DNA of 64,000 bases, from IMG/VR virus record IMGVR_UViG_3300025909_000005; one strand, given 5' to 3'. Position numbers and translations under genes: made by a program. The notes under the pieces were generated by a model. That model was not told the origin of the DNA, did no database searches, and saw only the letters and a list, made by a program, of their open reading frames with translations. The DNA is from a virus (taxonomy: Duplodnaviria; Caudoviricetes). Positions 5,005-60,985 of the stretch are shown in pieces (the stretch's first letter is position 1; every line of letters begins with the position of its first letter).

Positions 5005-5704
5005 GCCTGCTGTCACCCCACGTAAGGTGACCTGGACCTGTGAGTACTGCCAGCACCCGTTCGTAAGCGAGCGGGTCTTCATGAACCACCGCTGCAAGGA
5101 GAAGGGGCGCCTTGAGGAGCTGCGTGGTTTGGTTGGTCAGTCGGCCTACGCGTACTACAGCGAGTGGATGAAGCAGTCGAAGCGCAGCGTCCCACCCCTG
5201 GAAACGTTCGCACACTCGAGCTTCTACTCGACGTTCATCAAGTTTGCGAACCATGTTCGGCGCGTGAACATGCCGAATCCGATGGGCTTCATCAAGATCA
5301 TGGTCAGCAGCAACATTCAGCCATCGCTGTGGTGCCGTGACAACGTCTACGCACTCTACCTCCAAAGCTACGACACGGCTGTTCCTCCCACCACGCAGTT
5401 CATTGACTCGCTCGATTTCGCGCTGTGGATGGCGGGAGAGCACGAGGTACAGCCAGCCGAGGTGTTCTCGGCCATGGGCCTTGAGAAGGTGCTCTTGAGC
5501 GTGCAGAAGCGAAAGCTCTCGCCGTGGTTCCTTGTTGCCTCGAAGAAGTTCCGTGAGTGGATGGCGGCCCAGAACGAGTGGGACAAGTCTCGTCTCGAGG
5601 GTGCAGTCCAGGTTGGTGCCATGATCATGCGCATACAGCAGACTGAGAAGCACATCAAGCTCTTCAAGGAGTTCTCGAAGGCGACTGAGGAAGCAGGCCT
5701 GTGA
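4952..5704 (+). CDS. C2H2 zinc-finger-containing protein
   Basis: CEYC...FMNHRC motif, 250 aa. Confidence 0.65.
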   Translation: MDREALKGLAKGRRNSSEPAVTPRKVTWTCEYCQHPFVSERVFMNHRCKEKGRLEELRGLVGQSAYAYYSEWMKQSKRSVPPLETFAHSSFYSTFIKFANHVRRVNMPNPMGFIKIMVSSNIQPSLWCRDNVYALYLQSYDTAVPPTTQFIDSLDFALWMAGEHEVQPAEVFSAMGLEKVLLSVQKRKLSPWFLVASKKFREWMAAQNEWDKSRLEGAVQVGAMIMRIQQTEKHIKLFKEFSKATEEAGL

Positions 5705-8755: not shown

Positions 8756-9212
8756 AGTGCTCGTCTTCGTGGGGCTGAATCGGTTGAACTGACCGTTTCA
8801 GCTTGATCTCGACGCCAGCTGGAATCTTGTTCACACGGCGGCGTCGCACCTTTGGTGGTGTGTCGAGCTCGTACTTGAAGTTGTTGCCGATCAGTCGTGT
8901 GACGTGAGCTAGCTCGAAGTTCTTGTAGATGCGGTTCGTGTGGTGTGCCATGCCCAGGCGCGAGAACTCGAACGAGAGTGGGTACTTGTAGGAGGCTCGA
9001 TAGAACCAGGTGGTGATGACTGAGATCAGCTGTGCGAGGTTCAATCCCTCCTGCTGGGCAAAGTCGAGGACGTAGGCCGAGATTGCTTCCTCTGTGATGT
9101 TGTCGACGATCACGAGGTAGTTCTCGCGTCGATACTCCAACACCGCAAGGAAGAAGTAGTTGCCTTGATCTGACGCAAATTCAACGTGCAGATCTGGAAT
9201 GCGCTTCTTCAT
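8742..9212 (-). CDS. hypothetical protein, late-promoter driven
   Basis: SD AAGGA on minus strand; TAAATA on minus strand at 9237-9242. Confidence 0.75.
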   Translation of the reverse strand: MKKRIPDLHVEFASDQGNYFFLAVLEYRRENYLVIVDNITEEAISAYVLDFAQQEGLNLAQLISVITTWFYRASYKYPLSFEFSRLGMAHHTNRIYKNFELAHVTRLIGNNFKYELDTPPKVRRRRVNKIPAGVEIKLKRSVQPIQPHEDEHFTPR

Positions 9213-14780: not shown

Positions 14781-15632
14781 ATGGACAATATGAAGCCGCG
14801 TTACATTAGAGTCGTTAGCGACCTCCACCTCGAACAGTACTCGGGCAACCGCCCTGAGTTCAATCTGAAGACGTTTATTCCCGAGGATCCTCGCGATGCC
14901 GAGTCAGTTCTCGTGTTGGCTGGTGACATCGACTCTCACCCGGAAACGCTGTACCCGTTTCTTCAAGTTGCACCTACGCGGTTCATGCATGCGATTTATG
15001 TGCCTGGAAACCATGAGTTCTACGGTCACGACATGGATGAGTGGGCAAAGAACCTTCAAGCGCTGGCCGATGCGTACGCCTTTCCAAAGCTGAGTCTCTC
15101 GACGCTGGGTGTTGGCGAGCTGAAGCTAGAGAACGTCCGCTTCATCTTCACCACGTTGTGGGGAGATGGTGGCAAGTCACAATATGAACAGCTGATGGTC
15201 GGAAAGTACCTGCGTGACTTCTCCGTGATTCGTCGCAGTGGGCGTGGCTTCAAGGTGCCCGACATGATCGAGCTGCACAAGCAGCAGCGCGCAGAAGTAG
15301 AGCGTTTGTTGGGCGAACCGTTCGATGGCGTGAATGTCGTCGTCTCGCACCACATGCCCTCGTACCGCTTGTGTCATCCGCGCTTTGGCACGGATGCCAA
15401 TGGCGGTTTCGCGTCGAACATGGACCTGTTCCTGTCGCATGATACCGCGCCGCACATCTGGATTCATGGCCATACGCATGATTCCATCGACACCCGTCTA
15501 TGGAAGACCCGCGTCGTCTGCAACCCATCGGGTTACTACTTTGAGAACGATGCACGCTACAAGAACTTCAAGCCCAGGTTTCTTGACCTAGAGAACCTTA
15601 ATGAGGATCGTGAGGCGCAAGTCGATGGCTGA
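14781..15632 (+). CDS. calcineurin-like metallophosphoesterase
   Basis: SDLHLE, AGDI, PGNHEFY, SHHMPS and HGHTH motifs. Confidence 0.9.
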   Translation: MDNMKPRYIRVVSDLHLEQYSGNRPEFNLKTFIPEDPRDAESVLVLAGDIDSHPETLYPFLQVAPTRFMHAIYVPGNHEFYGHDMDEWAKNLQALADAYAFPKLSLSTLGVGELKLENVRFIFTTLWGDGGKSQYEQLMVGKYLRDFSVIRRSGRGFKVPDMIELHKQQRAEVERLLGEPFDGVNVVVSHHMPSYRLCHPRFGTDANGGFASNMDLFLSHDTAPHIWIHGHTHDSIDTRLWKTRVVCNPSGYYFENDARYKNFKPRFLDLENLNEDREAQVDG

Positions 15633-18756: not shown

Positions 18757-20154
18757 ATGACAGAAGAAATCATCATCGTGGATGACGGCACAGCTGTGGC
18801 CGAGCGCATCAGGGAACTCATCGCTGAAGCAGTGGCAGACGGCCGCAAGCTCGTCACTGTTCGTACCATCGACGCGATCAACGACATCCCCGGTGCCGAC
18901 CTCATCAAGGTCGCACAGATCGAGGGCTGGCAGGTCGTCGTGAAGGCCGGCGAGTTCAACGTCGGAGACCCGTGCGTCTTCTTCGAGGTCGACGCGTTCC
19001 TGCAGCTGAGTGACCCGCGCTTCGCGTTCCTTGAGAAGAACGCCATCACGTGGCACGGTATTCGTGGTGCTCGCCTCAAGACCATTCGCCTGCGCAAGCA
19101 GCTGTCGCAGGGTCTCGCGCTGCCGCTGAAGGACTTCCCAGAGATCATCGCTGAGTGGGACCGTCTCTGCAACGAGCCGGGCGTGAAGGCCGCCAACACG
19201 ACCATTCGTGACGTGAACTTCACTGGCGTCGTTGGCGTCATGAAGTGGGAGAAGATCATGAGCGCCCAGCTGGCTGGTCAGGCTCGTGGCAACTTCCCAT
19301 CCTTCATCCAGAAGTCGGACCAGGAGCGTGCGCAGAACATGGGCGACCGCATCTTCAGCTACGACGAGCAGCTGCGTCCAGTCGACATCAGCGGCATCTC
19401 GATGGAGCAGCTGACCCTCGCCTTCGACGCGAAGCGTATCATCGAGAAGAACGGCCAGTACTTCACGGTCGTGCCGCCGCGTGCCTCACGTGAGACGCGC
19501 TACGACATCACCATCAAGCTCGATGGCAGCTCCATGACGATGTACTGCCGCCTGCCGGACAGCGAAGGTGACATGCTCATCAAGGATGCCGAAGGCAACG
19601 TCATCGGCAACGGCGTGCAGTCAGGCGTCTGCTCTCGCAACCTCGACCTCAAGATCGAGGGCAACGAAGGCAACTCGTTCGTCGACATGGCGCAGAGCGG
19701 CATGCTCGATCAGCTGGTCGAGTACTGCAAGCGGACTGGTCGCAGCCTCGCGCTGCAGGGCGAGCTCATGGGTCCTGGCATTCAGGGCAACCGTGAAGGC
19801 CTGACTGAGAACAAGTTCTTCCTCTACAACATCTTCAACATCAACACGGGCGTCTACCTCGCTCCTGAAGAACGTTACAAGGTGCTGGCAGAGATCAACG
19901 CCCTCGCAGATGAAGGCATCGACCCGCGCTTCAAGTACATCGCGCACGTGCCGGTTCTCTTCCCGACCGAGCGGTTCGGGGATAACGGCATGAGCCTTGC
20001 TGAACTTGGCATCACCGACATGGCATCGCTGCTGAAGTTCGCCGAAGGCAAGTCACTGCACAACGCCGTGCGTGAAGGTCTCGTCTTCAAGGCGTACGAC
20101 GGCACGCACCAGTTCAAGGTGATCAGCAACCTCTACCTCGAACAGGAGAAGTAA
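18757..20154 (+). CDS. RNA ligase (Rnl2/DRB0094-like) with N-terminal OB-like domain
   Basis: KLDGSS motif I, LQGELMG, REGLVFK, FKVISNLYL. Confidence 0.85.
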   Translation: MTEEIIIVDDGTAVAERIRELIAEAVADGRKLVTVRTIDAINDIPGADLIKVAQIEGWQVVVKAGEFNVGDPCVFFEVDAFLQLSDPRFAFLEKNAITWHGIRGARLKTIRLRKQLSQGLALPLKDFPEIIAEWDRLCNEPGVKAANTTIRDVNFTGVVGVMKWEKIMSAQLAGQARGNFPSFIQKSDQERAQNMGDRIFSYDEQLRPVDISGISMEQLTLAFDAKRIIEKNGQYFTVVPPRASRETRYDITIKLDGSSMTMYCRLPDSEGDMLIKDAEGNVIGNGVQSGVCSRNLDLKIEGNEGNSFVDMAQSGMLDQLVEYCKRTGRSLALQGELMGPGIQGNREGLTENKFFLYNIFNINTGVYLAPEERYKVLAEINALADEGIDPRFKYIAHVPVLFPTERFGDNGMSLAELGITDMASLLKFAEGKSLHNAVREGLVFKAYDGTHQFKVISNLYLEQEK

Positions 20155-41355: not shown

Positions 41356-41568
41356 ATGACCATGGGACGTAGACTTTCCCTGCATGAAATGAATGCCATC
41401 AGGCATGAGGACGATGTTCGCAACTCGCAGATCAAGCGAGGCGAATGGAAGCCGAAGACAAACAACAACTATCACTGCGTGTGTGGTTGTGGTGCGTTCG
41501 CATGCGTGTTCGTGAGCTCAATTCCGCAGACGGTCCTGCCCATGGACGAACGATCAAATGTCTCTTAG
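41356..41568 (+). CDS. small Cys-containing protein between the two suppressor tRNAs
   Basis: SD AAGGA; HCVCGCG; stop TAG lies inside the downstream tRNA. Confidence 0.55.
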   Translation: MTMGRRLSLHEMNAIRHEDDVRNSQIKRGEWKPKTNNNYHCVCGCGAFACVFVSSIPQTVLPMDERSNVS

Positions 41569-41634
41569 CTCAATGGGTAGAGCGACGGTCTCTAAAACCG
41601 TATGTTCCGGGTTCGAGCCCCGGAGGGACGGCCA
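41559..41634 (+). tRNA. amber suppressor tRNA, anticodon CUA (copy 2)
   Basis: perfect anticodon stem ACGGT/ACCGT, loop CT-CTA-AA; weak T1.G72, G73, CCA encoded. Confidence 0.9.
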
Positions 41635-59310: not shown

Positions 59311-59756
59311 TGGACGCAATTCAACTCCTGATCGATGACCACAACGCGGTCAAAGAGAAGTTTGCGCAGTTCGAACACATCGACAACTTGAACAACGCCG
59401 ACGAGAAGATCACGCTGTCACACGAGATCTGTGCTGCTCTAGCCACTCACATGGCGATCGAGGAAGAGCTCTTCTACCCGGCTGCTCGTGCCCTCTTCGA
59501 CGACAAGGACGATGAACTCGTCGATGACGCCGTGAAGGAACACAAGCACGCTCGCTCGTTGATGAAGGACATTCAGACTCTTGAGGTCGGTGTTCGCCTC
59601 AATCTCGAGATGAAGGCGCTCAAGCTCATGATCGAAGACCACGTCAAGGACGAGGAAGGCACCATGTTCCCTAAGCTTCGTCAGCTTGGCATGGAGACGA
59701 CCCAGCTCGGTGAAAAGATGGCTCAACGAAAGAAGGAACTTTCACCGAACGTGTGA
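59310..59756 (+). CDS. hemerythrin (HHE) domain protein
   Basis: DAI.LL..DH..V...F...H...EEE.FYPA...EH....H...EE..MFP. Confidence 0.85.
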   Translation: MDAIQLLIDDHNAVKEKFAQFEHIDNLNNADEKITLSHEICAALATHMAIEEELFYPAARALFDDKDDELVDDAVKEHKHARSLMKDIQTLEVGVRLNLEMKALKLMIEDHVKDEEGTMFPKLRQLGMETTQLGEKMAQRKKELSPNV

Positions 59757-59769
59757 TATAATCACCACA

Positions 59770-60172
59770 TGCTCAATCACCCGGCCTAACGCTGGCTTCA
59801 CGGCTAGAACAAGTTCGGGGCTGCACAGGACAGGGCTTGTCGCTCTGTGGAAGAAGCGGTCGTGCGTTGGAAACTGCCTTTAAACTCGAAAGGGTCGGAA
59901 GCTCCAGCAACGTTCAATCGTGGTCGATCTCTCGCGGTAACAGTGAGAGCTCTCTATTGCCACTTTAGCTTTGCTTGACCACAACGACTCCGCAGCAAGT
60001 CAAACAGACCTCGTCGACGCTGTCCGCTGAGGGGTCGGGTTGATGCACCTATGATCCGGATTGGAACCCGGGGAGGACGTCGGTCACACGGCGTAGTCAA
60101 ATGTTAGGAACCATCGGCGGTTGTGAATGCCTGATGGAGAAAGTAGAACCCCGGCTATGAGGTGATTGAGCA
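59770..60172 (+). ncRNA. rnpB: RNase P RNA (type A-like, divergent)
   Basis: 12-bp P1 TGCTCAATCACC/GGTGATTGAGCA; P2 CCTAAC/GTTAGG; P4 G(T)TCGGGG/CCCCGGC with bulged U; conserved-region look-alikes AACAAGTTCGGGGCT, GCAGCAAGTCAAACAG, AACCCGGGGAGG, TAGTCAAATG, AGAACCCCGGCTA; TATAAT at 59757. Confidence 0.85.
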
Positions 60173-60314
60173 CCTTTTACAAACACATCTCCATAAAAGA
60201 AGCAGATGAAGCACTTGTCCCTGCTAAATACTAGCAAGGATGAAGTTGAGATTCTTCCCGAATGCCGGTTCCCTCACGGACCCGAGAAGCATTCCAACCT
60301 TTTAAGGAGATGAC

Positions 60315-60875
60315 ATGACTGACATGACCAACAAGGATGCAGCACAGAACTCGGCACCAGATGCCAAGGTTCTTCCTGCTTCCCAGCAGCCAGCAGCAAC
60401 TGGCACGTCGACGAACTCGCTGCCTGTGACCCCACAGACCGCTGACGCCGCACACGTTGCCAACGCAAACCTGCCTCGCGCCGCAGTTCCAACCACAAAC
60501 GCCGTTCCAACGGCCAAGATGACGGACTCGACGAAGGAAGAGCAGTCGAACCTGAAGTCCATCGTTGACAAGACGAAGGACATGTCGGAGTACGACAAGC
60601 AGGAAGCCTACGCCAAGATGGCTGAGGACAAGCTCGGTGAAGACAGCTACCGCAAGGCAGCTCGTCTCGAACGCGAGCGTGAAGCTGCTCTCGCCGAAGG
60701 CGACCCAACCCGTGACCCTGTTGCAAAGCAGAAGGCCATGGACATGACGGTCGTCCAGCCAGGCGCAGTTGCTGACGCACAGAAGATCAAGCAAGTCGGC
60801 AAGGAAGCACTCGCTGATCAAGCGAAGGCACGTGGCACTGACGGCGACGTCAACCCACAGTTCGTTCAGAAGTAA
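60315..60875 (+). CDS. hydrophilic Ala/Thr-rich protein
   Basis: SD AAGGAG; TAAATA at 60225. Confidence 0.7.
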   Translation: MTDMTNKDAAQNSAPDAKVLPASQQPAATGTSTNSLPVTPQTADAAHVANANLPRAAVPTTNAVPTAKMTDSTKEEQSNLKSIVDKTKDMSEYDKQEAYAKMAEDKLGEDSYRKAARLEREREAALAEGDPTRDPVAKQKAMDMTVVQPGAVADAQKIKQVGKEALADQAKARGTDGDVNPQFVQK

Positions 60876-60985
60876 GAAAGATGGGAGGGCTTCGGCTCTC
60901 CCACTTCAGCCCAGGGAGGGCCAGCCACCAAGATGATGGTGGCCAGTGATGTGAAGACGGAGAGTGTTTCCGTCGGGAGACCATC

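Follow-up and report, generated by a model that had tools for sequence, protein, structure and literature searches.

A large soil phage probably encodes its own RNase P RNA, a divergent one of bacterial type A, with putative activity on phage pre-tRNAs in partnership with host RnpA. The gene lies on the plus strand at positions 59770-60172 of the window, the 64,000-nt stretch of phage DNA analysed here, directly 3' of the block of 27 tRNA genes. It is 403 nt long, is closed by a 12-bp helix P1, and holds no ORFs except short, unconserved ones of at most 65 aa. The preliminary description had proposed a phage-encoded, sequence-divergent RNase P RNA, and this identity is supported by the matches of relatives to the Rfam model RF00010, by homology of the window copy to one of these relatives (L017), and by compensatory change in the helices.

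Position and genomic context

A gene-free stretch of 403 nt following a TATAAT had been claimed, as had a P1 of 12 bp, and both are borne out. The TATAAT occupies 59757-59762 with a TG ahead of it, and P1 is a perfect 12-bp helix (UGCUCAAUCACC/GGUGAUUGAGCA) at the ends of the element. A consensus scan gives no full sigma-70 promoter. The single-sequence minimum-free-energy (MFE) z-score of the element is -0.55, which is not significant against shuffles and is uninformative alone. That the element is more than chance follows from the recurrence of the same helices, with different sequences, in about 12 relatives.

The window contains 27 tRNA genes and a permuted two-piece tmRNA, and the array presumably includes odd tRNAs and ORF-free blocks. 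CCA is encoded by 20 of 25 phage tRNA genes. Two tRNA genes with CUA anticodons, amber suppressors that ARAGORN calls tRNA-Pyl, lie just 3' of the tmRNA gene (window:41275-41347 and 41559-41634), and a 139-aa HNH-endonuclease-like ORF with sub-threshold Pfam matches lies within the tRNA array (window:51396-51815). The window also encodes a DNA ligase, NAMPT and a PurA/PurZ-like enzyme. The last of these (window:33544-34887) is an adenylosuccinate-synthetase homolog that matches a PHROG family named PurZ, which hints at 2-aminoadenine (Z) DNA. An RNA-repair-like set comprises an RlaP-like nucleotidyltransferase, a metallophosphoesterase and an Rnl-type RNA ligase with a PHA02142 OB domain (window:7565-8755, 14781-15632, 18757-20154). 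A search for RnpA (PF00825) finds none in five viral records, including a 98%-complete genome of 336 kb, and none among 20 small basic ORFs of the window.

Helices and conserved motifs of the window copy

The window copy contains a full catalytic domain (Table 1), made up of P1-P5, with a bulged-U P4 flanked by CR-I and CR-V, the P6 pseudoknot, P15-P17 with the GGU, and a CR-IV-like segment. P2, P3 and a P4 with a bulged U had been predicted earlier, and all three are found in the stretch that had been named.

Table 1. Features of the RNase P RNA-like gene in the window
Feature	Sequence	Positions	Strand	Pairing or comment
Possible extended -10 promoter element	TGaTATAAT	59754..59762	+	by eye, tentative; 7-8 nt 5' of P1
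Whole RNase P RNA-like gene, P1 to P1, 403 nt		59770..60172	+	ends from best terminal helix; contigs from RNA libraries span only 59763-60174
P1, 5' strand	UGCUCAAUCACC	59770..59781	+	pairs with 60161-60172; P1 present in every relative, with different sequence
P2, 5' strand	CCUAAC	59785..59790	+	pairs with GUUAGG 60103-60108; sole 6-mer solution in the 5' part
P3 hairpin	CUGGCU-UCAC-GGCUAG	59792..59807	+	relatives have GNRA or UNCG loops, or long inserts, there
J3/4, CR-I and P4 5' strand	AACAAGUUCGGGG	59808..59820	+	bulged U at 59815 or 59816
P5, 5' strand	CUGC	59821..59824	+	pairs with GCAG 59992-59995; position anchor-fixed
P6 pseudoknot, 5' strand (J5/7)	GGACAG	59828..59833	+	pairs with CUGUCC 60020-60025 in the P17 loop
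P7 and extension, 5' strand	GUCG-CUC-UGUGG	59839..59850	+	pairs with CCACA-A-CGAC 59979-59988; RNAalifold on five large forms
Specificity-domain-like insert, 128 nt		59851..59978	+	P12-like hairpin 59929-59949 with GGUAACA loop (loop also in L002)
J5/15 and P15 5' strand	CAAGUCAAACAG	59996..60007	+	RF00010 counterpart GCAAggccAAAUAGG via L017 alignment
P16/P17 arm	GACCUC ... GGGGUC	60007..60036	+	loop holds P6 3' strand
J16/15 with CCA-binding GGU and P15 3' strand	CGGGUUGAUGCA	60036..60047	+	RF00010 counterpart CGGGUaggccGCU via L017 alignment
Two hairpins at P18 position		60048..60094	+	60048-60076 and 60077-60094; RNAalifold; candidate P18 homologs only
CR-IV-like J18/2, running into P2 3' strand GUUAGG	AGUCAAAUG	60095..60108	+	comparison with L017 UAGAUAAAUGAUAGAC
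Extra P19-like hairpin between P2 and P4, 27 nt		60111..60137	+	MFE fold; UUCG hairpin at equivalent place in L017
J2/4, CR-V and P4 3' strand	AGAAAGUAGAACCCCGGCUA	60138..60157	+	P4 3' strand AGAACCCCGGCUA is 60145-57
P1, 3' strand	GGUGAUUGAGCA	60161..60172	+	pairs with 59770-59781

A position-by-position comparison with E. coli rnpB shows that P4 of the window copy has the same geometry, namely 3 bp, a bulged U and 5 bp. Its pairs are A-U, G-C, U.G, [U], C-G, G-C, G-C, G-C and G-C. As had been claimed, paired changes in P4 preserve pairing. Specifically, three pairs are swapped on both sides relative to E. coli rnpB (A-U to G-C, G-C to U.G and C-G to G-C), and compensatory change extends across the family.

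The altered forms of the conserved regions that had been pointed out, AACAAGTTCGGGG (59808-20) and AGAACCCCGGCTA (60145-57), are both present. J3/4 reads AACAAG in the window copy versus a family consensus of AGGAAG, J2/4 reads GUAGAA versus ACAGAA in the family, and CR-IV reads AGUCAAAUG versus a consensus of AGAUAAAUG. The CR-IV J18/2 reference is AGAUGAAUG and the relatives have UAGAUAAAUG; the window copy keeps the A-rich cores of CR-IV and J2/4 while the flanking bases are changed. The corresponding segment of L017, UAGAUAAAUGAUAGAC, is aligned by RF00010 to CuAGAugAAUG.

Comparison with E. coli rnpB reveals no recognisable CR-II or CR-III of the specificity domain in the window copy. In the large relatives the specificity insert ranges from 73 to 154 nt and folds differently in each, and in the mini forms it is gone. 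A close relative assembled from an RNA run (contig X9) is a natural deletion variant, in which 110 nt of the insert (59858-59967) are replaced by the 5 nt TTCAT. The variability of the insert in length and fold, its lack in the mini forms and its partial deletion in the RNA contig indicate that selection holds the specificity domain much less tightly than the catalytic domain, or in a different way. The specificity domain is non-canonical, and recognition of the tRNA elbow is probably relaxed or altered.

Relatives in other phages and metagenomes

About 12 non-redundant relatives occur in viral and metagenome contigs. A pattern based on P4, AGTTCGGGG..GAACCCCGGC, gives 10 matches, one of them a true homolog (L002) and the other nine chance matches in coding DNA. 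A second signature, AAGTCAAAYAG ... GGGTTGATGCA, was built from blocks common to the window copy and L002, and leads to true relatives at 8 viral loci and 6 further metagenome loci. Six of the 15 matches in the metagenome and cellular signature search are chance matches (L019, L020, L025, L027, L031 and L033). The signature has a single match in 185,579 cellular species genomes, a chance one. One locus, L023, is nearly identical to the window copy (99.5%) and represents a strain variant. An exact 25-mer has no match in IMG/VR, blastn against GenBank phages with the element or an 8-kb stretch as query returns tRNA matches only and no close relative, and the neighbouring hemerythrin protein as query for related loci yields no relative.

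The relatives differ widely in size. The window copy and L002 are 403 nt long; L012, L014, L015, L017 and L011 measure 346-390 nt; L022, L024 and L030 measure 257-275 nt; and the mini forms L013, L021 and L032 measure 191-228 nt. Nearly all members lie in or beside tRNA genes. GOLLD RNA genes are found a few kb from the RNase P-like genes in two loci (L021:8826-9231 and L022:3204-3675), and a tmRNA lies 1.4 kb downstream of the RNase P-like gene of L030.

One member is encoded by a cultured phage. Stenotrophomonas phage DLP6 has an unannotated copy of about 249 nt directly upstream of a tRNA-Arg gene (L034:1407-1655, equal to KU682439.2:105774-106022), and the DLP6 genome paper makes no mention of RNase P or a ribozyme. 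The window copy and the mini forms have in common the signature AAGUCAAAYAG...GGGUUGAUGCA, which reads GCCAAACAG...GGGUUGGUGC in DLP6, and the P4 variant AGUUCG.../...CGGCUA, DLP6 included. By its J5/15...J16/15 signature, its P4 variant (AGUUCG/CGGCUA) and its place in or beside a phage tRNA array, the window copy belongs to a phage tRNA-cluster RNase P RNA family, of which it is a full-size subtype. At 403 nt, with P7 and a 128-nt insert, it is not one of the minimal forms that lack a specificity domain (about 150-250 nt).

In a 132-kb contig classed as a provirus (L016:5070-9063), a mini gene is split into a 5' half (about 5070-5125) and a 3' half (about 8930-9063) by a 3.8-kb cassette that encodes an Rrf2 regulator, NrdD, an NrdG-like activase and two small ORFs. 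Immediately upstream is a PNKP gene. Judged by DNA ligase, the nearest cultured phage is RsoM2USA, a Ralstonia phage of 344 kb (36% identity), in which neither the signature pattern nor RF00010 detects a copy. The split gene and the RsoM2USA genome without a copy suggest that the gene is useful rather than indispensable to the phage.

Compensatory change across the family

Helices were extracted by rule, at fixed offsets from conserved anchors, from 12 non-redundant sequences. P1, P2, P3, P4, P5, the P6 pseudoknot and P16 are found in 12 of 12. In these anchor-defined helices 419 of 420 cells pair, with compensatory double changes in 29 of 35 columns. P4, P5 and P16 are anchor-fixed and involve no pairing search; in them pairing holds in 191 of 192 cells, and double changes occur in 12 of 16 columns. 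Slid controls, in which the 3' partner is moved by 1-3 columns, show 32-42% pairing. P4 pairs in all 96 cells of the 12 sequences (double changes in 5 of 8 columns) and P5 in 48 of 48 (double changes in all four columns). In P2, five of the six columns have double changes across the family.

Pairs were also counted on a model-guided alignment of eight members, itself fitted to the structure; 97.2% are paired, and in 28 of 37 both sides have changed. The observed value is not reached in any of 500 shuffles, and slid controls give 25-46%. Helices 1-3, the P1-P2-P3 scaffold, contribute 15 of 18 pairs changed on both sides. MAFFT alignments of the short and intermediate forms misalign P1-P3 and were left out of the counts. 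An independent RNAalifold analysis of the five large forms also yields P1, P2, P5, P7 with its extension, P15, P16 and P17, with an A-U to G-C double change in P7. The J5/15 and J16/15 motifs are invariant in the family, but the search pattern itself selected for them.

The P6 pairing is a tertiary contact that serves as the hallmark of type-A RNAs. It is formed in 12 of 12 sequences, and all four scored columns have double changes. The window copy pairs GGACAG with CUGUCC, and the corresponding strands are GAGUAG/CUACUC in L017, GCAGAGAU/GUCUCUGC in L022, CUGCUUA/UGAGCAG in L024, CCACG/CGUGG in L030 and AAACC/GGUUU in the mini forms. Per-sequence shuffle tests give p = 0.004-0.31, and it is the recurrence of P6, rather than any single sequence, that supports the pairing. 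The catalytic domain alone cleaves substrates, and P6 matters for its activity in that setting (PMC5839562).

Relation to bacterial RNase P RNA

An Infernal search with the Rfam model RNaseP_bact_a had been suggested as a check, and the window sequence itself fails it. No RNase P model matches at the gathering score, nor does relaxing the threshold to E<=10 yield a match, whether on 681 nt or on the exact 407 nt. Four relatives match RF00010 over its full length, namely L017 (59.1 bits, E 1.5e-17), L024 (57.7 bits, E 4.6e-15), L030 (56.7 bits, E 1e-14) and, by unfiltered scoring, DLP6 (54.7 bits, E 3.3e-17). E of the relatives' matches ranges from 1e-14 to 1e-18, and L014 matches weakly, at 22.3 bits; every relative scores below the gathering score of 100 bits. 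The ends of the four full-length matches fall within about 12 nt of the ends set from P1 alone. For the DLP6 stretch cmscan lists nothing, yet unfiltered scoring gives the 54.7 bits. Because the cmscan filters lose this match, they may also account in part for the blank on the window.

The window copy is linked to these matches through L017, with 84.6% identity over 104 nt (E 7e-24 in a search space of 2e8 bases) and 73% identity over the 5' 75 nt. By this sequence similarity the two are clearly homologous. A covariance model built from three mini forms only (R1) is too specific; it gives a partial local match on the window (E=0.019) and none on E. coli rnpB.

Expression and head-to-tail joints

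The element is contained in 20 public rhizosphere and soil runs, nine of which are metatranscriptomes. In all four RNA runs compared with window:58800-61200, contigs cover 59763-60174 at a depth of 5-15. The flanking genes have essentially no RNA cover, the exceptions being short contigs of low depth at 59448-59482 (with non-matching flanks) and 60752-60902 (run X8). This lack of cover over the flanks makes DNA carry-over unlikely and points to a discrete stable RNA as the likely source.

In all four metatranscriptomes the RNA contig over the element, 393-411 nt long, is closed head to tail, with joints at 60174>59765, 60173>59763, 60166>59769 and 60165>59773. Each joint would cap P1 with a loop of 4-8 nt. 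The evidence consists of assembled contigs, which give no joint frequencies, and the joints could stem from circularity of the RNA, from ligation of its ends across P1 or from an artefact. A contig depth of only 5-15 makes a rare reverse-transcription artefact an unlikely source. We consider it a real possibility, somewhat short of probable, that the phage RNase P RNA is largely a covalently closed circle whose P1 ends are joined, perhaps by the phage set of Rnl, RlaP-like and phosphoesterase proteins. Circular RNase P RNA has been reported so far only in some archaea (PMC4238349). If the RNA is circular, an exonuclease-proof viral RNase P ribozyme of this form would be new for bacteria and phages.

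Proposed function and alternatives

The element is most likely a working RNase P RNA that uses host RnpA. The RNA would fold and then recruit the host RNase P protein RnpA, the complex would hold phage pre-tRNAs by the acceptor stem and the encoded CCA end, and the 5' leaders of these pre-tRNAs would be cleaved off. Processing capacity for the 27 tRNAs and the two-piece tmRNA would in this way be added or secured during infection. Such a proposed role in maturing phage tRNAs and tmRNA with host RnpA fits the genomic context.

Other roles for an RNA of this ancestry are less plausible. It is unlikely that the element is an RNase P-derived ribozyme whose substrate range has changed to phage-specific RNAs, such as spacer hairpins, tRNA-like array modules, tmRNA pieces or mRNAs, in place of general pre-tRNA processing. 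Bacterial RNase P cleaves non-tRNA substrates too, which counts for such a change, as do the variable, non-canonical specificity domain (73-154 nt), its absence from the mini forms, and the odd tRNAs and ORF-free blocks of the array (unchecked); against it, the CCA- and acceptor-stem-binding elements are the best-conserved parts, and most phage tRNA genes encode CCA. A catalytically weak or dead mimic might soak up host RnpA or compete with host RNase P RNA, and so re-program or shut down host tRNA maturation. No phage RnpA is found, J3/4, J2/4 and CR-IV of the window copy carry substitutions, and the region that contacts RnpA (P2-P4, CR-IV and CR-V) is conserved, all of which such a mimic would accommodate. 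Yet it would have no need for the P6 pseudoknot, J5/15 or the CCA-binding GGU, which are all conserved or co-varying, and the 27 tRNAs of the phage themselves need RNase P activity, which makes the mimic quite improbable.

Explanations that deny the element a function or an RNase P ancestry fare worse. The low similarity to RF00010 and the split gene in L016 could be signs of a decaying, functionless remnant of a captured host rnpB. We disfavour this as very unlikely, because the family signature occurs in no cellular genome (185,579 species genomes, one chance match), compensatory change keeps the helices across lineages of 36% to 56% G+C, and four metatranscriptomes contain the RNA in abundance. 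Were the element an unrelated structured RNA, or its resemblance to RNase P RNA due to chance, the missing Rfam match of the window and an MFE z-score of only -0.55 would be explained. This reading is effectively refuted by four relatives that match RF00010 at E<=1e-14 and whose match ends fall about 12 nt or less from the P1-defined ones, together with the homology between the window copy and L017 and the covariation in the family.

Comparison with known systems

RNase P RNA, the ribozyme that trims newly made tRNAs, is generally seen as a universal housekeeping RNA with its gene on the chromosome. Full-text literature searches found no paper that describes a virus-encoded RNase P RNA. The nearest report is that of the diverged RNase P RNAs of CPR bacteria, which were found only below the Rfam noise cut-offs (PMC8172020). 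A conserved phage lineage would show that real RNase P RNAs are missed by standard covariance models. It would also extend the translation-related functions of large phages to an RNA enzyme. Its members, in which P4 pairs are exchanged and specificity domains reshaped or missing, would serve as natural experiments on the tolerance of the catalytic domain. Since DLP6 is a cultured phage, bench work on its copy can address the question directly.

The window copy shares with type-A RNase P RNA (E. coli M1 RNA, rnpB; RF00010) the order and geometry of P1-P2-P3, the bulged-U P4 between CR-I and CR-V, P5, the P6 pseudoknot between J5/7 and the P17 loop, P7, P15-P17 with GGU in J16/15, the CAAAnAG motif of J5/15, a CR-IV-like segment and a similar length (403 versus 377 nt in E. 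coli). It differs in being phage-encoded beside a tRNA array and in lacking a match to RF00010, to which its relatives match at 22-59 bits. P4 has three exchanged pairs, base changes occur in J3/4, J2/4 and CR-IV, and the specificity domain has no recognisable CR-II or CR-III and varies between relatives. An extra hairpin lies between P2 and P4, and two hairpins take the place of P18. Unlike type-A RNase P RNA, the phage family has a J5/15-P15 signature that is absent from cellular genomes (one chance match in 185,579 species genomes).

Within the family, the window copy differs from the mini forms, including that of DLP6, in being full size and in keeping P7, the 128-nt insert with its P12-like hairpin, and the extra 3' hairpins, in place of which the mini forms have a short hairpin or nothing. 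Lost or remodelled helices of the specificity domain and escape from standard covariance models are features shared with the type T RNAs of Thermoproteaceae and the RNA of Mycoplasma fermentans (PMC3579882) and with the diverged CPR forms (PMC8172020). Those RNAs are the only, essential RNase P RNA of the cell, whereas the phage RNA is an accessory viral copy of type-A ancestry, and its window form is not reduced in length. With phage tRNA arrays and tmRNA it shares the genomic neighbourhood and the character of a phage-brought part for tRNA supply and ribosome rescue. It differs from them in that it is a predicted RNA enzyme that would process those RNAs, rather than a substrate of translation.
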